Source: a virus
Lineage: Duplodnaviria > Heunggongvirae > Uroviricota > Caudoviricetes
Length of the DNA stretch: 36,800 nt
Reading direction: 5' to 3' (one strand)
IMG/VR virus record: IMGVR_UViG_2721755498_000005
Shown here one piece after another: positions 12,253-32,002 of this stretch. The first letter of the stretch is position 1. Each line of letters opens with the position of its first letter. The notes under the pieces are model-generated. The model was not told where the DNA came from and searched no databases. It worked only from the letters and a program-made list of their open reading frames with translations. The position numbers and the translations under genes are program-made.

Positions 12253-13674
12253 TTACTCACCAACAGCCCACCAACTGTAATTCATCGATACTGTGGAACT
12301 GGTTGATGCAGTTCTGTAAGCGGAATTAAAACCGGTTAATGTTGGGCCTTCTGCAGTCATCATGAACCCTCGCCCAGCACCTAAAGGCGCACCACCATCA
12401 CCAGAATGAGTAAGCATGGCGCAGTCCACTTTTTTAGGAAAAGGGATGCTGAATGTAATTCTCATTGTTTGCGTCGATAATGTCGGCGTAACCGCACCAC
12501 GACCATATTGCAGGATTTTCCCGTTGGGTAATTTCATCCATCCATCACCACTGGCAAAAGAGGCCATGTCCGGTATCTGATTTTCCCCTGTCCCCACATC
12601 CCGTTTTGCCGCTTCTCCCAAACCAAGGTATGCGAGAAGACCTGCTACATCCTTTCCACTCAAATGAGTCAGCGTATTGTCCAGCGGTTGTTTACCTGCC
12701 AGCGCATTAAGCATTGTCGTGGCAAAGTTCGGATCATTCCCCAGTGCCGCCGCCAGTTCGTTCAGTGTATCCAGTGCCGCAGGTGCAGAACCCACCATTG
12801 CCGCAATCGCCGATTTCACAAATGCCGTGGTGGCAATCTGTGTATTGTTGACCGACTGTGCCGCAGTAGGTGCTGTTGGCGTTCCGGTGAGTGCCGGACT
12901 CGACAGCGGCGCTTTCAGTGCCAGCGCATTATTAATAGTGGTACTGAATTTCGGGTCATTGTTAATGGCTGCGGCAATTTCTTTCAGTGTGTCCAGCGTG
13001 GCTGGCGCACCGTTAATCAGAGCAGTAATAGCGGCCTGAACAAACTCTGTGGTCGCAATCCGAGTGGTGTTATTTCCTGCTGCAGGCGTCGGCGCTTTTG
13101 GTTCTCCGGTAAATGTCGGATTATGTTTCTGCGCATACTGGGTATGAGGATCTTGTGCGGCAATGTGGTTTCTCATCTGGTCATCCACATACAGCTTTAA
13201 TTCCAGGACTTTATCATCCACGTATTTACGGGTTGCCAGCACTACAGCAGGGTCGATTTTCAGGGTGATATTGTCCGTACTGCTGGTAATCAGCACCATG
13301 CGCACGGTCTGGGTGCGCCCGCTGCCTTCAGCCAGTTGCGGCTTATAGCTTTCCGGGCAGTTGCCCACGGCAATCAATGCCCCGGACTCATCAAACAGGC
13401 CCACTTCACGTATCCACCAACCGCCCTCGTTTTCAGGGATCACCTGTTCAGCAATAATCTGGCTGCTGTTCTGCGGGTCGATATAAAGCATATTCAGCGC
13501 AGCCCGGCGTTTCTCATTTACCAGTGCCGTCTGCTTTGCGTCCGGCGTTGGCAATACTCCGCCGCCATCGCCCACCGCCATATGGGTAATTTTTAGCGGC
13601 ACACCGAGCGCGGCGGCGCTGGCAAGTTTCGCCGCGCCAATATCCGTCAGCAGGGTATAAAATTTTGTGCTCAT
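12253..13674 (-). CDS. H: Tail fibre protein gpH (constant N-terminus plus currently joined variable C-terminus)
   Basis: 473 aa; N-terminus MS.KF.T..T..GAAKLA...MAVGDGGG as in P2 H; crossover site at codon about 349. Confidence 0.8.
   Translation of the reverse strand: MSTKFYTLLTDIGAAKLASAAALGVPLKITHMAVGDGGGVLPTPDAKQTALVNEKRRAALNMLYIDPQNSSQIIAEQVIPENEGGWWIREVGLFDESGALIAVGNCPESYKPQLAEGSGRTQTVRMVLITSSTDNITLKIDPAVVLATRKYVDDKVLELKLYVDDQMRNHIAAQDPHTQYAQKHNPTFTGEPKAPTPAAGNNTTRIATTEFVQAAITALINGAPATLDTLKEIAAAINNDPKFSTTINNALALKAPLSSPALTGTPTAPTAAQSVNNTQIATTAFVKSAIAAMVGSAPAALDTLNELAAALGNDPNFATTMLNALAGKQPLDNTLTHLSGKDVAGLLAYLGLGEAAKRDVGTGENQIPDMASFASGDGWMKLPNGKILQYGRGAVTPTLSTQTMRITFSIPFPKKVDCAMLTHSGDGGAPLGAGRGFMMTAEGPTLTGFNSAYRTASTSSTVSMNYSWWAVGE
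12613..12638. repeat. Right invertase recombination site inside gene H
   Basis: ttctcccaaacc aa ggtatgcgagaa; resembles the hix/gix centre AAACCAAGGT; inverted copy of the left site. Confidence 0.6.
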
Positions 13675-22917: not shown

Positions 22918-24684
22918 ATGAACACCACACTGACACCCGCAGATCTCGATCCCCGTCGGCAGGCCATGCTGCTGTACTTTCAGGGATACCGCGTCGCCCG
23001 CATTGCTGAAATGCTGGGCGAGAAAGTTGCAACCGTTCACAGCTGGAAAAAACGCGACAAGTGGGGTGACTATGGGCCGCTGGATCAGATGCAGCTCACC
23101 ACCGCCGCACGCTACTGCCAGCTCATTATGAAGGAGCACAAAGAAGGGAAAGATTTCAAAGAAATTGACCTGCTGGCACGCCAGTCTGAGCGCCACGCGC
23201 GGATCGGCAAGTTTAACAATGGCGGAAACGAAGCCGACTTAAACCCTAACGTTGCCAACCGCAACAAAGGCCCACGTCGTCAGCCGGAAAAGAATGTTTT
23301 CACCGATGAACAGATTGAGAAACTGGAAGAAATCTTCCATTCCTCTATGTTCAACTACCAGCGCCACTGGTGGGAAGCCGGAAAAACCAACCGCATCCGC
23401 AACCTGCTGAAGTCACGCCAGATCGGCGCGACCTTTTACTTTGCCCGTGAAGCCCTGATTGACGCCCTGCTGACCGGGCGTAACCAGATTTTCCTTTCTG
23501 CCAGCAAGGCTCAGGCCCACGTCTTTAAACAGTACATCATCGACTTTGCCAAAGAAGTGGAGGTGGAGCTGAAAGGCGATCCGATGGTGCTTCCTAACGG
23601 GGCCACGCTTTACTTCCTCGGCACCAATGCCCGCACGGCCCAGAGTTACCACGGCAACCTGTATCTGGATGAATATTTCTGGATACCAAAATTCCAGGAG
23701 CTGCGCAAAGTGGCTTCCGGTATGGCTATTCACAAGAAATGGCGACAAACCTATTTTTCCACGCCATCCAGTCTGACACACAGTGCTTATCCGTTCTGGT
23801 CCGGTGCGCTGTTCAACCGTGGGCGCAACAAAGCCGATAAGGTGGACATCGACCTGTCCCACAGCAATCTGGCCCCCGGCCTGCTGTGCGCAGACGGGCA
23901 ATACCGCCAGATAGTCACCGTGGAAGATGCGGTGCGCGGCGGCTGTAACCTGTTCGACCTCGACCAACTACGCATGGAGTACAGCCCGGACGAATACCAG
24001 AACCTGCTGATGTGCGAGTTTGTGGACGATCTCGCGTCCGTGTTTCCGCTCAGCGAGCTGCAGGCGTGCATGGTGGACAGCTGGGAAGTCTGGACCGACT
24101 TTCATGCACTGGCCCTTCGCCCGTTTGGGTGGCGCGAAGTGTGGATCGGTTATGACCCGGCAAAAGGTACGCAGAACGGCGACAGCGCCGGATGCGTGGT
24201 GGTGGCACCGCCAGCCGTGCCGGGCGGTAAGTTCCGTATTCTTGAGCGCCACCAGTGGCGCGGGATGGACTTCCGCGCCCAGGCGGACGCCATCAAAAAA
24301 CTGACCGAACAGTACAACGTGACATATATCGGCATCGACTCGACGGGTGTCGGTCACGGAGTTTATGAGAACGTGAAAGCGTTTTTTCCAGCCGTCCGGG
24401 AGTTTGTCTACAACCCCAACGTTAAAAACGCTCTGGTACTCAAGGCCTACGACATTATCAGCCACCGCCGTCTGGAGTTTGACGCCGGGCACAGCGACAT
24501 TGCGCAGTCATTCATGGCAATCCGTCGCGCCACCACCGCCAGCGGCAACCGCCCGACCTATGAAGCCAGCCGCAGCGAAGAAGCCAGCCACGCCGATCTG
24601 GCCTGGGCAACGATGCACGCATTGTTTAACGAACCGCTGCAGGGCGAATCCGCCAATACCAGCAATATTGTGGAGATTTTTTGA
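22918..24684 (+). CDS. P: Terminase ATPase (large) subunit gpP
   Basis: 588 aa, size and position as P2 P; divergent from O. Confidence 0.9.
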   Translation: MNTTLTPADLDPRRQAMLLYFQGYRVARIAEMLGEKVATVHSWKKRDKWGDYGPLDQMQLTTAARYCQLIMKEHKEGKDFKEIDLLARQSERHARIGKFNNGGNEADLNPNVANRNKGPRRQPEKNVFTDEQIEKLEEIFHSSMFNYQRHWWEAGKTNRIRNLLKSRQIGATFYFAREALIDALLTGRNQIFLSASKAQAHVFKQYIIDFAKEVEVELKGDPMVLPNGATLYFLGTNARTAQSYHGNLYLDEYFWIPKFQELRKVASGMAIHKKWRQTYFSTPSSLTHSAYPFWSGALFNRGRNKADKVDIDLSHSNLAPGLLCADGQYRQIVTVEDAVRGGCNLFDLDQLRMEYSPDEYQNLLMCEFVDDLASVFPLSELQACMVDSWEVWTDFHALALRPFGWREVWIGYDPAKGTQNGDSAGCVVVAPPAVPGGKFRILERHQWRGMDFRAQADAIKKLTEQYNVTYIGIDSTGVGHGVYENVKAFFPAVREFVYNPNVKNALVLKAYDIISHRRLEFDAGHSDIAQSFMAIRRATTASGNRPTYEASRSEEASHADLAWATMHALFNEPLQGESANTSNIVEIF

Positions 24685-25712
24685 TGGGAAAGATTAAGAA
24701 AAACCGCGCTGCGGCGACGAATCAGCTCAAGCATAAAAGCCAGACTTCAGCCGAAGCATTCAGCTTCGGTGATCCCGTTCCTGTACTTGACCGCCGCGAA
24801 CTGCTGGACTATGTGGAATGCGTACAGACAGATCGCTGGTATGAGCCTCCTGTCAGCTTTGACGGACTGGCGCGCACCTTCCGCGCTGCCGTGCATCACA
24901 GTTCACCAATTGCGGTGAAATGCAACATTCTGACCAGCACCTACATCCCTCACCCGCTACTCAGCCAGCAGGCTTTTTCGCGTTTTGTGCAGGACTATCT
25001 GGTTTTTGGTAACGCCTACCTGGAGAAACGCACGAACCGCTTCGGTGAAGTTATCGCCCTTGAGCCTGCACTGGCAAAATACACCCGACGCGGGTTAGAC
25101 CTGGATACCTACTGGTTTGTGCAATACGGTATGACAACCCAGCCGTATCAGTTCACGAAAGGCAGCATTTTTCATCTGATGGAACCGGACATTAACCAGG
25201 AGATCTACGGCCTGCCCGGTTATCTTTCTGCCATTCCGTCAGCTCTGCTCAACGAGTCCGCCACGCTGTTCCGCCGCAAGTATTACATTAACGGCAGTCA
25301 TGCAGGCTTCATCATGTACATGACCGATGCTGCGCAGAACCAGGAGGATGTGAACAACCTCCGCAATGCGATGAAAAGCGCCAAAGGACCAGGTAACTTC
25401 CGCAATCTGTTTATGTACTCGCCTAACGGCAAAAAGGACGGACTTCAGATCATCCCATTGTCAGAAGTCGCGGCGAAGGATGAGTTTCTGAATATCAAGA
25501 ACGTGAGCCGGGATGACATGATGGCTGCGCACCGCGTGCCGCCGCAGATGATGGGGATCATGCCGAATAATGTTGGGGGGTTTGGGGATGTAGAGAAAGC
25601 TGCTAATGTTTTTGTGAGGAATGAACTCATCCCTTTACAAAAAAGACTAGAAGAGCTGAACGAATGGATAAATGAAGAAGTTATTAATTTCGTGAGTTAT
25701 TCAATTACCTAA
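24681..25712 (+). CDS. Q: Portal protein gpQ
   Basis: 343 aa, overlaps the P stop; size and order as P2 Q; last 25 or so codons are AT-rich. Confidence 0.85.
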   Translation: MMGKIKKNRAAATNQLKHKSQTSAEAFSFGDPVPVLDRRELLDYVECVQTDRWYEPPVSFDGLARTFRAAVHHSSPIAVKCNILTSTYIPHPLLSQQAFSRFVQDYLVFGNAYLEKRTNRFGEVIALEPALAKYTRRGLDLDTYWFVQYGMTTQPYQFTKGSIFHLMEPDINQEIYGLPGYLSAIPSALLNESATLFRRKYYINGSHAGFIMYMTDAAQNQEDVNNLRNAMKSAKGPGNFRNLFMYSPNGKKDGLQIIPLSEVAAKDEFLNIKNVSRDDMMAAHRVPPQMMGIMPNNVGGFGDVEKAANVFVRNELIPLQKRLEELNEWINEEVINFVSYSIT

Positions 25713-25715
25713 TAA

Positions 25716-25746
25716 ACAAAAAGGCCATTAAATGGCCTTTTTGTTT
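25716..25746. terminator. Bidirectional rho-independent terminator between Q and the retron RT
   Basis: aaaaaggccatt aa atggccttttt hairpin with an A-run on one side and a T-run on the other; overlaps the RT stop codon. Confidence 0.5.
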
Positions 25747-26702
25747 TTAGGAAAAAGAACACTTAGATCAACCCCATATGCTTCAGACATTTTATTTGAG
25801 AAAGTCATCAATTTTCTATAGTTTTTCTTGTCTACACTTTTAACAAACGCAATAAGTCCTTTAACATGTTCGAAATCAGAATTTCTTTTTACCGCCAGAT
25901 AATGGATCTTACTTCTAATTTCGCGATAACGTATTCTGCCAACTCCAACATTATCAATAGATAAAACGAGCCCAGTAACCTCCTTCCTTGCTTTGGGGCC
26001 ATGAATCGCAACTTTATTATAATTAACCTTCAAAGATTCACTTGGTATTATAGAGCATACAAATGACTTAGCTTTAAGTATTTTTTTTAAAGATTGAGCA
26101 GATAAAGTCAAATCATCGGCATATCGAGTAAATACGATCCCCTTACTACCTGCATATCCATGTATTCTATAATCTAATTTAGTTAAAACAAGATTCGCAA
26201 TCTTTGGAGAAGATGGTGCACCTTGAGGTAGCGAACCATTAAATGAACACAATCTTGCTAAAGCATTAGAAATAGTAGAGTTATACCCCAGAGAATGAAA
26301 AACAGTATAGATTTTCTCTATCAGAATAGTATTAAAACAATCTTCTAAATCAATATTTAATACATAGTTAGCTCCTACATGTGGGCTGGCATTATTTAAT
26401 ATTGATTGCCCTTTTTCAAAGCCTTTGGAAAATGGGGATGAATGTAACTTATCAAGGATGTTTCTTAACACCCAAGCTTGCAATGCCTTCAGCTCACGTG
26501 ATGGCTGTGAAATGATGCGGGATCTCTTGCCATCTCTTTTTGGCAACGAATAAACCTTATAGTATTTGTCAGCACGATAAATGTACAACCGGAGTATGTC
26601 TACTGATAAACGCATTTCTCTAGACATATCCTCTAAAGAGGACATAACAGGCAATCCAAGATTGCGTAAGCGAAAAACCTGAGATGGTGTTGCGGAAGTC
26701 AT
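25728..26702 (-). CDS. Retron-type reverse transcriptase
   Basis: 324 aa; RT motifs NIDLEDCF and FTRYADDLTLS (YxDD); size like retron RTs; ATG directly after the a2 repeat of the msr-msd. Confidence 0.85.
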   Translation of the reverse strand: MTSATPSQVFRLRNLGLPVMSSLEDMSREMRLSVDILRLYIYRADKYYKVYSLPKRDGKRSRIISQPSRELKALQAWVLRNILDKLHSSPFSKGFEKGQSILNNASPHVGANYVLNIDLEDCFNTILIEKIYTVFHSLGYNSTISNALARLCSFNGSLPQGAPSSPKIANLVLTKLDYRIHGYAGSKGIVFTRYADDLTLSAQSLKKILKAKSFVCSIIPSESLKVNYNKVAIHGPKARKEVTGLVLSIDNVGVGRIRYREIRSKIHYLAVKRNSDFEHVKGLIAFVKSVDKKNYRKLMTFSNKMSEAYGVDLSVLFPKNKKAI

Positions 26703-26866
26703 GAGCGCACCCTTACGTCATAAAAATCAGATTCCGAAGTGAAAGGAGAACATCGGGAGATGTTCTCCTTTCAATGAGGGAACTGGTAAAACTTCAGATT
26801 GTATGTAGGACAGCGAAACACTGTCCAGTGAACTTCCGGAGAAGCCACTCGCTAAGGGTGCGCAAA
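26703..26866 (-). ncRNA. Retron msr-msd non-coding RNA (template for multicopy single-stranded DNA)
   Basis: Flanking 11-13 bp inverted repeats (26705..26717 gcgcacccttacg and 26851..26863 cgtaagggtgcgc) in a1/a2 arrangement; perfect 14 bp stem with 4 nt loop at 26741..26772; minus-strand 5' end TGCGCACCCTTAGCGAG and 3' end GACGTAAGGGTGCGC match my recollection of Ec86. Confidence 0.65.
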
Positions 26867-27763
26867 ACGCATCCTATCATAGTGGAGTATTGTTTTACCA
26901 CGATTTTCGAAGTTCATCATATCCAGTCGTAGATTGTCCAAAGCCTTTCGATCAAAATGCTCAAGAACGTATTGCATACCAATTTCTGTAATATGGTATC
27001 CTTGAACTGAACGCCTAATTATTGACTCTTTAATCAAGCTTGAAATAACAGACTTAACGATAATTTCACAAAGAATAGCATCTTTCTTAGTCACCAAATG
27101 TAATAGCTCATATAGAAGTATATTATCTATACCATCCATCAAATATATACATGGCAGTATAAAACGCCGAGCGTGAAGAATATTATCTATTGAGTGATTA
27201 ACTGGGTTATTTTTTTTGATGTCATTAATACTTTTTATAATTCTATTATAAAAAGCTTTACCTGTACTCAAGCTTTCAAGAGTCGACAAATCTCCTCGCA
27301 ATACTGCACCGCTATTAGCACGCCGAAGCAGTTTTATAGGCCCATAATTAAGAAAGCTTTTTTTAAGTTTGAATTTGTCATCCTGAAGACATATCATTTT
27401 TTTGCACAGTTTTTCATTATTTGAAAATGCGCCCAATTCAGCGAAAGACCCTGGGCTTTCAGGAATAATAATAATAACATCGACTGAATCAGCTAAAATA
27501 TTCTCCAAACTTAAAAGACTATGCTGACCTTGTCCATACAAAAGCTCATCAAACAACTCCTCAGGATAGAATATTTCTATTTTGGGATGTGTTTCCAACA
27601 CTCTTTTAACTTTATTTCTACAAAAAAACGGATCATTCAAATCGCCCCCGCAAAGGAAAACAGTAACTTTATTTTTATTTTTCTGTTGAAAAAGCCGACT
27701 TTTAATTAAATTTGCCAGATTTTGCTTCTGCAACTCCGGAATAGTTTTCTTTTTCATATCCAC
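26852..27763 (-). CDS. Retron effector, nucleoside 2-deoxyribosyltransferase-like (NDT-like) protein
   Basis: 303 aa AT-rich ORF immediately upstream of the msr-msd; motif IIIIPESPGSFAELGAF resembles the NDT catalytic-glutamate motif; stop codon lies inside the a1 repeat. Confidence 0.7.
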   Translation of the reverse strand: MDMKKKTIPELQKQNLANLIKSRLFQQKNKNKVTVFLCGGDLNDPFFCRNKVKRVLETHPKIEIFYPEELFDELLYGQGQHSLLSLENILADSVDVIIIIPESPGSFAELGAFSNNEKLCKKMICLQDDKFKLKKSFLNYGPIKLLRRANSGAVLRGDLSTLESLSTGKAFYNRIIKSINDIKKNNPVNHSIDNILHARRFILPCIYLMDGIDNILLYELLHLVTKKDAILCEIIVKSVISSLIKESIIRRSVQGYHITEIGMQYVLEHFDRKALDNLRLDMMNFENRGKTILHYDRMRFAHP

Positions 27764-27823
27764 TTTTCCTCAGAATGATCCCATCTTTTATACAACATTC
27801 AAATCTGAGTTTCCACCCGCTGC

Positions 27824-27847
27824 GCGCGCTCGTATCCCCGCCACGCC
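27824..27847. other. Putative cos site (cohesive-end region)
   Basis: Minus-strand reading GGCGTGGCGGGGATACGAG matches the first 13 nt of the 186/P2 19-nt cohesive end as I recall it; lies in a GC-rich 244 bp intergenic region. Confidence 0.35.
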
Positions 27848-28007
27848 TGCCCGCTTTATGTAGCGGTTTTCATGCGCCTGCATGACATAAGCAAAATCCC
27901 GCCACTCCTGGCGGGCCTCAGCTAAAACGATCCTCAAACGATCATGCGGATTCATGCGGCATAGACATGCACAATCTCCAAAGCGGGCATCGAGACTTTT
28001 TGGAAAC

Positions 28008-28619
28008 CTACGTAACCACAGTTAATGTGTGCATCCTGTCTCGAATTGCATCACACGTCTCATCAAAAAGCTTGGTGATGGTTGTATGGTTCAACTCCGC
28101 CTCTTTCCAATAATTTTGCCCGTCAAATTCTGGATCGCTATGCTTAAACGATATTGACTCTGAAAGGCATTCCTTCCGGAAACGGTCCAAGATTATATAA
28201 ACCTCTGGTGAGATGAACGGTTTGTTAGATTCAACACTTGTAACAAAAGTGTTAAATGCATCAGAAAAAACTTTCAACCTTCTAAATTTTCTCTCTTCAA
28301 ATGGTTCGTTGGGGTCAACATGATCCAGCGCAGGCCTCAGCTTAAGCACGCTTTCTCTGGTTTCAAACATCGAATTCCAAATGAGACTATATGCTGATAA
28401 CTCCTTATCAAAATACGCTTTCGTTACATAAACAGAATTGTCTAACTTAGCCTTTATTCTTTCATTAGTTGCACTCAGTTGTGATTGAAATTCAGCAATA
28501 TCTTTGTTTAGCCGCGACTTATATCTTTCTAAATAAACTTTCCCGATCCAAACAAATATGCCAGATGCAACAAAAGACACCCCACCCAACGAAGCCAGAA
28601 CTTTAAAGACTAAATCCAT
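28008..28619 (-). CDS. Hypothetical membrane-anchored protein (accessory region next to cos)
   Basis: 203 aa ORF; ATG with GGTGGGGG RBS; N-terminal TM helix then a predicted coiled-coil/soluble domain; no family recognised. Confidence 0.5.
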   Translation of the reverse strand: MDLVFKVLASLGGVSFVASGIFVWIGKVYLERYKSRLNKDIAEFQSQLSATNERIKAKLDNSVYVTKAYFDKELSAYSLIWNSMFETRESVLKLRPALDHVDPNEPFEERKFRRLKVFSDAFNTFVTSVESNKPFISPEVYIILDRFRKECLSESISFKHSDPEFDGQNYWKEAELNHTTITKLFDETCDAIRDRMHTLTVVT

Positions 28620-29587: not shown

Positions 29588-32002
29588 TTAATACAGGTTC
29601 CGCCACTTATCATCTTCCTGCAAACGCTGGTTCCGATAGAAGACACGCAGGCCTGCTCCTGACGGAATACTGCCGCCGCGAAGGAGTAAATCGACCTCTT
29701 TCTCGCTGCCATCAAATCCTCTGGACTTCAGTTCATAGACGAGCTGCTGTCGTTGATGGTCTGTAATTCGCTGTTTGTAGTCTCTACGCCGTTTCGGTTT
29801 CACCAGGCGTAACCTTGCAGCCAGTTCCCGGCGCTCTTTTTTGTTCATACTGTGCAGGTAATCGTGCAACTCCTTGTCATCCATGTGGGTAATGTCCGTT
29901 CTGGTATCCCCATCAGCTGATTTGTCTTTCCCTTGTTGGTTCAAATTTTCAGCAAGGGGACAGTTATTGCCACGAGTCCAAGGGGCGCAAGCGCCCTGGT
30001 CGGCTGCCGCCTCCTGAACGTCAACGGCTTTACGAACCATTTTCCACTTCACTGCATGAGTGCAGATCTTGCCCTCTGCAATGGGTGACCAGATGCCATA
30101 AATACGAATGCCGTGATCGCCATAGGCGGTCGGCTCTTCGTTGATTTCATAAGCGGTTCTGATGAGGTGATATTTACGGGGAACCAGTACGCCGCCCTGC
30201 TTCATGATGTAGGTGGCAAAACAACCAGCATCAGCAGCAGCCAGGATGGCATCAAGGCGCGGGTTATCCAGTACCGGCGCACCTGCTTTTTTGTCCCCCT
30301 TTTGCCTTACCGCCTGACCAGCCAGCAATCGCAGTTCACGGTAAGCCTGACGCCCCGGAATGCCAAAGAAGCGGAATTGCTGAACACGATGCAAAGACGC
30401 CCAGGCATTCACGTATTCAGCGTTATCACGCAGAGATTTACCCGTTTCCTTGCTGATCTCGCCAGCCAGACCACGCCCGTCAATGTTCTTACTGATGTAT
30501 TTCGCTATGTAGCTTGTCGGCGTTCCTTTGCGCGGGTTAATCAGCTCAGACTTAAAGCGCGGCCCCGTGTTATTGCCCAGCTCCTCGCGGTCTTCACGGA
30601 TAGCAAACTTACGCAACAATGCTGTAATGGCGCGGCGGTCTTTTTTGCGCATGAAACACAACAGGTGCCAGTGAACTGTGCCGTCGTGATGCGGCTCAGC
30701 CACCCGCACGCCATACCAGCGCAACCCGGCTTTGTGCATCGCCTTACGAAATGCAGCAAACATACCGACCAGATAATCGCTGCTTTGTCTTACCGTCGCA
30801 TTTGTCCAGGTCGGGTTGGGCCTGCCGTTATTTAGCGTGGAATGGAAACGTGACGGACAGGTGATGGTGTAGAAAACGGCGCAGTCACCGCGCATTTCCG
30901 CGATAAGCTCCAGACCTTTAACACAGGCCATCATCTCATTGCGGCGATGCGCAGGGTTGCTGCTGCTGGCGTTTACCACATCCTCCATGTCTAGCGTGTC
31001 GCCGTCTTCGTTCACCAGTTCATGAGAACGGAAAAACTCCAGCGACTTACGGCGCTGCTCACGTTTATGCAACACGGCTTCATAGCTGACATAGGGAGAT
31101 GCTTTTTTGCTGACAAGGCAGACAGCACGCAACTGCTCTTCCCGCCATTCGCAACGCATCTTCCATAATTTCCGATACCACCAGTCGGCGCACAACATAC
31201 GCGCCAGCGAACCCGGAATGAGTTCATAGGGCACGGGTTTACGGCGGTTTCTTTTCCGACGGAGTTGCTCAAACGCAGGCGGGATGACATCCAGACGCAG
31301 GGTTTCCGCTGCCACCCTTTCCCATGTATTGCGGATTTCTTCTGGCTTAACGTCATCGGTGGCATACAAATCGCCACAAGCGGCATCAAGGCACATACTC
31401 ATATGCGCAGCTACCAGGGTGGACAGGCGTTTCACCTGATCCTGACTCATTTCAGGCAGGATCAGCAGGCCGTCCAGCCCTTCATGGCTTGCCATAAAGC
31501 GAAAAGATGCAGATAGCTGACTGTCGCGTACATGCTCCAGTCGTTCCAGACATGGCTTAATCGTCTCACGTAAATAGCGGGAATAAGCCTTTGGCCTGCC
31601 CAGGCTGCTGAAGTATTCAATACGTTGCATCAGCGGCTTGCTGATATGGGAAGGCTGGGCGTTGACGTCCGCCAGAATGACCATATCCGGATTAAAACGC
31701 TGCTGCTCATGCGCCAGCTTTGCCCGACTAATGAGCTTATCCTGTTCCATTTCGCGCTGGACAGGATCACGGGATTCATTAAAGAAATAACGCTCCCAGA
31801 CCTGATCACTCAGCGCCTCACGGCGCAGCTGTTCCTGCTCGTTATCGGCAGCGTACAGAGTGATCAGGTTTGAAAGCGTAGAAACCGGCGCAACTTCCAC
31901 CGGGTCCAGATAAGGGTTAATGGCCTTTTTCGAGCTGTTCCATGAGAACGATGCGGCAGCTTCGTTAAAGCCGCAGCAGTTGTTCATATCGGCATGACTC
32001 AT
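29588..32002 (-). CDS. A: Replication initiation endonuclease gpA (rolling-circle)
   Basis: 804 aa with the active-site tyrosine motif [12 protein letters not shown]. Confidence 0.85.

Follow-up and report, generated by a model that had tools for sequence, protein, structure and literature searches.

We found that the block at 25728-27763 of the window, the whole 36,800-nt stretch of viral DNA analysed here, is very probably an intact retron of type II-A3, in the Retron-Eco1/Ec86 family, carried as cargo by a P2/186-like prophage with cos on one side and the portal gene on the other. An effector gene, an msr-msd region and a reverse transcriptase (RT) gene, in that order on the minus strand, were all present where a preliminary description had placed them, and the strong AT-richness it had reported was borne out (GC content of 35.4% in 25728-27763 compared to 54.3% in the terminase and portal genes and 50.9% in the whole window). 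This relative of Ec86 is diverged, and it is rare in E. coli; since it occupies the same slot in the same kind of prophage, we count it within a system that is already known, and the kind of system is not new. An anti-phage role is predicted by analogy with Ec86. The features were located as follows.

24681..25712, plus strand: phage portal gene, gpQ-like, inner boundary (Pfam Phage_portal, 3.9e-17; PGAP in the identical E. coli H1 record)
25715..25745, no strand assigned: hairpin at the junction of the convergent RT and portal genes, overlapping the stop codon of the RT gene
25728..26702, minus strand: retron reverse transcriptase, 324 aa (Pfam RVT_1, PADLOC RT_II-A, NCBIfam)
26704..26864, minus strand: ncRNA (msr-msd), 161 nt (alignment to the BL21 Ec86 ncRNA, fold, covariation)
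26705-26715, minus strand: a2 repeat, pairing with a1
26717..26798, minus strand: msd (columns homologous to the 86-nt Ec86 msd)
26728-26754 and 26759-26785, minus strand: arms of the msd hairpin, with a perfect 15-bp core
26808-26826, minus strand: msr stem-loop 2 (Ec86 ncRNA alignment and fold)
about 26827-26849, minus strand: msr stem-loop 1 (Ec86 ncRNA alignment and fold)
26852, minus strand: branching G, bulged, invariant and unpaired in homologues
26853-26863, minus strand: a1 repeat, pairing with a2
26852..27757, minus strand: effector gene, 301 aa (N-terminal NDT-like N-glycosidase domain, C-terminal winged-helix domain)
27813..27879, minus strand: phage cos region, outer boundary of the insertion (local alignment to the P2 cosR/cosL junction)
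about 27829-27847, minus strand: homologue of the 19-nt cohesive end (P2 cosR/cosL alignment)

The best PADLOC model for the RT was RT_II-A PDLC02941 (408 bits, 4.9e-123), which was also the best model for the Ec86 RT (424 bits), while the other II-A sub-models scored far lower (223 and 197 bits). The RT also matched NCBIfam retron_St85_RT (NF038233) with 272 bits, above the curated cut-off of 235, and Pfam RVT_1 at 1e-24. Its assignment to sub-clade II-A3 is defined by the best PADLOC model together with 59% identity to the Ec86 RT (PDB 7v9u/8qbk). The YADD motif described earlier was present at residues 194-197 of the 324-aa protein, and the NAxxH residues (N104, A105, H108) and VTG residues (T243, G244) were invariant in an alignment of 26 RTs. 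Pairwise alignment revealed that the N-terminal FRLRNLGLPVM is conserved between the Ec86 RT and the present one; according to PMC12673091, the N-terminal segment is said to mediate Eco1 dimerisation.

Likewise, the effector had the same best PADLOC model as the Ec86 effector, NDT_II-A PDLC02930 (324 bits, and a near-equal score for the Ec86 effector), with 127 and 38 bits on the other II-A effector sub-models, and scored 186 bits on NCBIfam STM3845_fam (NF038232), above the curated cut-off of 100. The Pfam search of the effector returned no match; the Pfam copy searched apparently lacked PF28093 STM3845, which appears in precomputed annotations only. The N-glycosidase/NDT-like effector of Ec86 was a full-length homologue with 50% identity (E = 5e-92). 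The AlphaFold model of the effector (mean pLDDT 81) superposed on PDB 8qbl/8qbk/7xjg with TM scores of 0.84-0.86 (0.85 to 8qbl_E), and weaker structural matches to nucleoside 2'-deoxyribosyltransferases and to winged-helix (wHTH) DNA-binding domains were obtained; the NDT fold thus stood up when it was put to the test. The start codon of the proposed 303-aa protein probably needs correction: the ORF including the GTG start spans 26852..27763, PGAP starts the gene at ATG 27757, two codons inside, in the E. coli H1 record, which is identical, and this ATG corresponds in the alignment to Met1 of the Ec86 protein, so that 301 aa is likelier than 303 aa. Glu107 (in FAELG) aligned with E106 of Ec86, the residue by which PDB 8qbl differs from wild type (E106A), was invariant in 32 homologues, and is the predicted catalytic residue. 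Identity to the Ec86 effector was 66-70% over residues 51-150 and 34-52% over residues 151-300, and the putative DNA-binding half is the most diverged portion of the protein in this comparison.

For the ncRNA, the inverted repeats previously put at 11-13 bp were confirmed as a closing stem made of the perfect 11-nt a1/a2 pair and 2 further pairs beyond the bulged G, and G26852 also serves as the last base of the effector's TAG stop codon. The 173-nt region around the ncRNA had a minimum free energy of -73.7 kcal/mol (z = -7.9), and the structure is well beyond chance, since 0/200 shuffles were as stable. In 19 distinct homologous ncRNAs, the 36 consensus pairs were paired at 94.7% and 24 of them showed compensatory changes, whereas pairing with slid partners reached only 38-45% and 0/500 shuffles reached the observed values. 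The conservation of the inverted repeats in homologous loci, which the preliminary description had left to be checked, was therefore found, with repeats and stems kept through compensatory changes. Overall identity to the Ec86 ncRNA was 63%, the present ncRNA being 8 nt shorter. The impression that the ends match Ec86 and the interior differs was correct: the first 17 positions and 12 of the last 13 aligned positions were identical, compared to 25/53 in the msr and 52/86 in the msd. Rfam returned no retron family in the window (gathering thresholds) or in the ncRNA region (E <= 10); this null is uninformative, because the genuine Ec86 ncRNA, as a positive control, was unmatched too and the library holds no usable model.

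An msDNA of about 82 nt is predicted, compared to 85-86 nt for Ec86, and it folds at -19.1 kcal/mol (z -7.0). The sequence that we take to be the Ec86 msd matched positions 71-156 of the BL21 ncRNA exactly, and relative to it the present msd has a different stem sequence and a net deletion of 4 nt. The perfect hairpin noted earlier was present, with a core of 15 bp rather than 14 bp, and the sequence comparison with Ec86 supports the claim of a distinct msDNA species.

We then compared the locus with known retrons. Ec86 of E. coli B/BL21 (type II-A3) has the same gene order on the strand opposite the portal gene and the same cos-to-gpQ position in a P2/186-like prophage, and both prophages occupy the chromosomal rybB/rcdA site. 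The claim of prophage cargo was correct, the retron lying on the portal side of cos; the order of effector, msr-msd and RT and the cos-to-portal position recur in related loci. The P2-like hotspot between gpA and gpQ, next to cos, houses cargo (PMC9122126), and of the whole query nothing but the cos region was conserved in other E. coli genomes and in P2-like phages. Ec86 and the present retron share the a1/a2 repeats, the bulged branching G in TTAGC, the msr stem-loop 2 loop GTTTCG, the YADD of the RT and the effector glutamate equivalent to E106, whereas msr stem-loop 1 is rebuilt in the present ncRNA. With the Ec86 sub-models, the homologous proteins and the ncRNA homology, the identification as an Ec86-like retron was supported, and the computable refutation tests named with it all came out favourably. 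Retron-Sen2 (St85)/RcaT, of type II-A1, is likewise a tripartite toxin-antitoxin system, and its NDT-like effector also includes a DNA-binding domain (PMC7736814). PGAP gives 'retron St85 family' names in the identical records, and this NCBI label covers both the St85 and the Ec86 groups, which Mestre et al. separate as RT clade 1 and clade 9 with different ncRNA types.

Of 5,426 complete E. coli genomes, four carried the allele, with 99.8-100% identity across them; these carriers are unrelated isolates from river water, cattle and calf housing. The RT cluster had 71 members and the effector clusters 43 and 2. As read from these comparisons, the block is intact and shows purifying conservation. 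A literature search with the protein accessions, the hairpin sequence and an RT peptide, including the supplements of a retron census preprint, returned no paper describing the allele. The matches listed in the genome-contig search were mostly distant RTs, with usable loci in L004, L005, L006 and L022; the close relatives came from the viral-contig search and exact-protein look-ups, and the locus of the nearest RT (P0002) was reached through its partner effector (P0123). The nearest relatives found were uncharacterised II-A3 retrons of Serratia oryzae, Erwinia rhapontici, Pantoea and Pectobacterium, with RT identities of 63-75% and effector identities of 58-74%. They share an ncRNA subtype with the present retron (157-166 nt, msd hairpin tip GAACATCTCYCGATGTTC), the tip being slightly different (GAACATCCCCTGATGTTC) and msr stem-loop 1 longer in Serratia oryzae; ncRNA identity to them was only 68-74%, and the lower msd stem differs via compensatory changes. 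Several adjoin a P2-type portal gene, as the present retron does, and some lie outside prophages, such as L168 beside a Thoeris system and L173 in a Serratia integrase island.

If the retron works as Ec86 does, its mechanism would follow the published Ec86 work as summarised in PMC12673091 and PMC12640716. The RT would bind the msr, prime from the 2'-OH of G26852 and copy the msd into the stem-loop msDNA of about 82 nt. RT-msDNA would then bind the effector and assemble into filaments that restrain its N-glycosidase. Once phage infection perturbed the msDNA, the effector would hydrolyse NAD(P)+, with ADP-ribosylation, and stop the growth of the infected cell; the outcome would be abortive infection via a tripartite toxin-antitoxin system.

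The trigger may be where the two retrons part. A motif search found neither CCWGG (Dcm) nor GATC (Dam) in the present ncRNA, so a canonical Dcm/Dam target is missing, while the Ec86 ncRNA carries one CCWGG. This motif was missing from 2 of 6 aligned Ec86-type ncRNAs and carried by 8/19 family ncRNAs and is therefore not a conserved family feature; a Dcm target in the msd stem is part of the reported Ec86 trigger rather than a family-defining trait. Together, the different msd stem, the missing CCWGG and the most diverged DNA-binding half of the effector hint, if weakly, that the phage cue probably differs from the Dcm methylation by which Ec86 is reportedly triggered. Triggering exactly as reported for Ec86, with Dcm-type methylation of the msDNA by a phage, would suit the close family kinship, the same overall msd stem-loop architecture and the CCWGG found in the msd of near relatives (L004, L168, L163 and L164), but it is unlikely for an ncRNA with neither target.

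Other readings concern what the block does at all. It could be an inactive relic that makes no msDNA and gives no defence, as the rarity of the allele and a promoter scan of 25600-28100 without a convincing promoter (7 promoter-like sites compared to 8.2 in shuffles) would allow; however, neither ORF is truncated, all residues that are invariant in the family are present, the ncRNA pairs are intact, and the near-identity in four unrelated isolates, in an apparently complete prophage, makes decay very unlikely. A working toxin-antitoxin retron might instead be kept mainly for the benefit of the prophage, through addiction or stabilisation or by excluding P2/P4-type rivals, rather than for general host defence. 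Retrons act as tripartite toxin-antitoxin systems (PMC12673091), and exclusion genes of P2-like phages, old and tin among them, lie in the cos-proximal hotspot (PMC9122126; P2 annotation). However, the family members beside Thoeris and in the Serratia island are outside P2 prophages, Ec86 reportedly gives defence when cloned without its prophage (PMC7736814), and the two roles are not mutually exclusive; we consider a mainly prophage-serving role improbable. Finally, the RVT_1 domain is common to retron, group II intron, DGR, Abi and DRT enzymes, and the flanking hairpins might be coincidental. This reading is already refuted for practical purposes by the retron-model scores and by ncRNA covariation within the retron family: the RT scored 60 bits on the group II intron model TIGR04416 (cut-off 300), 32 on Drt2 (cut-off 390) and 29 on Drt3a (cut-off 200), compared to 408 on the retron II-A model, in agreement with the earlier view that it is retron-type rather than of the group II intron or DGR kind.

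Retron-Eco1 is a structural and genome-editing workhorse among retrons. The present retron, with proteins 50-59% and an ncRNA 63% identical in an equivalent prophage context, offers a comparison partner for the study of msDNA as a phage sensor, and possibly an orthogonal RT/ncRNA pair for editing tools. We tentatively suggest, at somewhat less than even confidence, that this allele and Ec86 form a natural allelic pair whose msDNA stems and effector DNA-binding halves co-diverged to sense different phage cues, on the basis of the same slot, kind of prophage and chromosomal site, the lack of a Dcm/Dam target and the sub-clade hairpin tip. If this is true, swaps of the msd and the effector C-terminal part would map msDNA sequence onto trigger specificity in filament-forming retrons. 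The locus also adds to the cases of allele turnover at the cargo slot that P2-like phages have next to cos; no concept is altered, and standard defence-finder models and the NCBI annotation pipeline already recognise the retron.

Two neighbouring ORFs were considered and set aside. The 203-aa upstream gene (28008-28619) was rejected as a fourth retron component, as it lies across cos and neither BL21 nor JNE082640 has it at the Ec86 locus; phage Cartapus carries it and was absent from the nucleotide hits of the retron region. The 55-aa ORF at 27788-27955 was judged spurious because it overlaps cos and is unannotated by PGAP. On the portal side, the hairpin at 25715..25745 (AACAAAAAGGCCAT-TTA-ATGGCCTTTTTGTT) was not listed by a consensus scan; the surrounding 71 nt had a folding energy of -29.4 kcal/mol (z -7.4), and the hairpin is likely a bidirectional terminator. 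The equivalent position in P2 holds the tQ terminator.

We inspected the open reading frames and sequence of the minus strand between 25728 and 27763, where a three-part retron resembling Ec86 (Retron-Eco1 of E. coli B/BL21, type II-A3) had been proposed, and found all of its elements. The finding is real and its interpretation correct: the locus is a new and rare, and apparently uncharacterised, member of a well-characterised family, one that current models and NCBI's annotation can already identify. The elements and the landmarks around them are:

25728-26702, minus strand: reverse transcriptase (RT), 324 aa, YADD at residues 194-197
26704-26864, minus strand: structured ncRNA, 161 nt, between and overlapping the effector and RT genes
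up to GTG 27763 or ATG 27757, minus strand: effector, 303 or 301 aa
27813-27879: P2 cos homologue, by alignment to P2 cos
2700-2778: RybB sRNA (Rfam, 105 bits), one prophage flank
31206-31742 of the identical E. coli H1 record, just past the window end: rcdA, beyond the integrase, the other prophage flank

The RT was assigned to the retron class rather than to group II introns. It scored 408 bits on the PADLOC model PDLC02941 (RT_II-A), on which the genuine Ec86 RT, run as a positive control, also scored best (424 bits), and it exceeded the curated cut-off of the NCBIfam "retron St85 family" (272 vs 235 bits); the group II intron model gave 60 bits, with 300 required. Over its full length it is 59% identical to the structurally solved Ec86 RT. 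In BL21(DE3), RefSeq gives the Ec86 RT as an 888-nt CDS with an internal start (L002 3707-4594, NC_012971.2); the full 320-aa frame is intact there, and is so annotated in JNE082640 and likewise in the PDB chains.

The effector scored 324 bits on PADLOC PDLC02930 (NDT_II-A), also the best model for the genuine Ec86 effector (positive control, 314 bits), exceeded its NCBIfam "retron St85 family" cut-off (186 vs 100 bits), and is 50% identical to the solved Ec86 effector over its full length. The proposed NDT-like fold was borne out by an AlphaFold model (mean pLDDT 81), which matched the Retron-Eco1 effector with a TM of 0.85 and, more weakly, nucleoside 2'-deoxyribosyltransferases, the CMP N-glycosidase MilB and winged-helix DNA-binding domains. 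Glu107 in the FAELG motif, invariant across 32 homologues, is the equivalent of Ec86 E106; E106A is the sole difference from wild type in PDB 8qbl, titled as an inactive effector. The frame does reach GTG 27763 as the preliminary description stated, but a start at ATG 27757 (301 aa) is more likely than its 303 aa, because Met1 of the Ec86 effector aligns to this codon, at which PGAP also starts the gene in the E. coli H1 record, a sequence identical to the window.

The ends of the ncRNA pair through a perfect 11-nt inverted repeat, a1/a2 (26705-26715 / 26853-26863), and inside lies the expected hairpin, whose perfect core is 15 bp rather than the 14 bp first described. The region's minimum free energy is -73.7 kcal/mol (z = -7.9 vs dinucleotide shuffles). 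As first described, its ends match the Ec86 ncRNA of BL21 and its interior differs: the first 17 positions, which take in a1 and the TTAGC around the branching G, and 12 of the last 13 are identical, whereas identity falls to 25/53 in the msr and 52/86 in the msd. To assess conservation, we aligned 19 different homologues of the ncRNA, gathered from prophages in IMG/VR, from GTDB genomes and through look-ups by exact protein, and derived a consensus with RNAalifold. The results showed that the inverted repeats and stems are kept, with compensatory changes in 24 of 36 consensus pairs and 94.7% of cells paired; sliding the 3' partners by 1-3 columns reduced this to 38-45%, and none of 500 shuffles attained the observed values on any measure. 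The branching G (G26852) shows no variation across the alignment and is bulged. Because it also forms the third position of the effector's TAG stop codon, a1 is encoded within the final effector codons, as in Ec86; positions 26852-26864 thus fall in the effector end ...AHP-TAG. In the homologue consensus this C-terminal AHP and its overlap with a1 are conserved family-wide, which implies a dual constraint on protein and RNA.

The family ncRNAs form two subtypes, that of Ec86 (169 nt, hairpin tip GAGAGCATCGYYTGATGCTCTC) and that of the window (157-166 nt, hairpin tip GAACATCTCYCGATGTTC), the latter common to Pectobacterium, Erwinia, Pantoea and other loci. The Serratia oryzae ncRNA has a tip closely related to GAACATCTCYCGATGTTC and a longer msr stem-loop 1, and the sampled relatives are at most 74% identical to the window ncRNA. 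Scans of window 26600-26950 and L002 4500-4900 showed that no Rfam release 15 model detects even the canonical Ec86 msr-msd; covariance scans for such retrons therefore need a custom model, which our ncRNA alignment could seed.

The 86-nt sequence that we took to be the Ec86 msd matched the BL21 ncRNA exactly as reverse complement, and mapping it onto the ncRNA alignment placed the window msd template at 26717-26798. The predicted 82-nt msDNA folds at -19.1 kcal/mol (z = -7.0). Since recent structures revise Ec86 msDNA to 85 nt (PMC12673091), we estimate a length of 81-82 nt.

E. coli strain H1 matches the window at 100% identity, and the host element, a P2/186-like prophage, seems to have its full gene set. 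Given the cos homologue, the retron occupies the interval from cos to the portal stop codon, as prophage cargo, and a strong hairpin overlapping the RT stop codon lies at the position of the P2 tQ terminator. Its GC content (35.4%) is well below that of the adjacent terminase and portal genes (54.3%) and of the window overall (50.9%), in line with the AT-richness noted earlier. Ec86 in BL21 lies in the same cos-portal interval and orientation, on a defective prophage between rcdA and ybjL. The RybB and rcdA flanks match that chromosomal slot, placing both retron alleles on related prophages at one attachment site. Dodd and Egan (1996) reportedly described a 186-related prophage in which Ec67 and Ec86 take the place of DNA between cos and a terminator. 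The cos-proximal gpA-to-gpQ region is a defence hotspot that includes retrons (Rousset et al., PMC9122126). Some relatives likewise adjoin P2-type portal genes, and others neighbour a Thoeris system or form part of an integrase island. One (L168 4193-5682, RT 64% identical) is directly upstream of a ThsA Macro and ThsB TIR pair, in a chromosomal defence island rather than a P2 prophage.

For Retron-Eco1, RT-msDNA and an N-glycosidase effector are reported to form filaments that restrain the effector, and phage-caused msDNA change to lead to NAD(P)+ hydrolysis, ADP-ribosylation and abortive infection (PMC12673091, PMC12640716). By homology, the window RT-msDNA complex would bind its N-glycosidase effector in filaments that hold it in check; infection would alter the msDNA and free the effector, whose NAD(P)+ hydrolysis and ADP-ribosylation would abort infection. 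For Ec86 the reported trigger is msd methylation by a phage Dcm. The phage cue of the window retron is likely different, since its ncRNA contains neither CCWGG (one in the Ec86 msd) nor GATC, and effector identity to Ec86 drops from 66-70% in the catalytic core (residues 51-150) to 34-52% in the DNA-binding half (151-300). This argument is weak, however, because CCWGG is carried by just 8 of 19 family ncRNAs and is missing from 2 of 6 aligned Ec86-type ncRNAs.

The window allele occurred in 4 of 5,426 complete E. coli genomes (99.8-100% identity), and the Ec86 allele in about 48, mostly BL21/B-derived laboratory strains among the matches listed. Clustering at 90% identity puts the RT in a group of 71 members; the nearest other cluster is 75% identical, with a partner effector from Serratia oryzae. 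No genome in the GenBank phage collection carried the window retron, and a non-exhaustive search of papers and supplements found no mention of its accessions or sequences. The window retron is valuable for comparison, being a natural allelic counterpart to Ec86, rather than for any new concept.

Elsewhere in the prophage, a tail-fibre fragment beside an invertase-type recombinase (L001 7586-7975, window ~13285-13674), called an incomplete pseudogene by PGAP, may be an invertible segment rather than prophage decay. A 55-aa minus-strand ORF (27788-27955) overlaps cos and is unannotated by PGAP in the identical record, so it is unlikely to be a gene. An AT-rich 203-aa ORF (28008-28619, minus strand, 38.7% GC) with a hydrophobic N-terminus is separated from the retron by cos; it occupies the gpA side, as old/tin do in P2, but on the strand opposite to those genes. 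Its sole match was PHROG 26391 (unknown function); phage Cartapus has a version 96.6% identical to it towards the right end of its genome, and Enterobacter ludwigii (L169 1050-1661) an 83% identical copy upstream of an Ec86-type retron. This ORF is possibly independent defence cargo.
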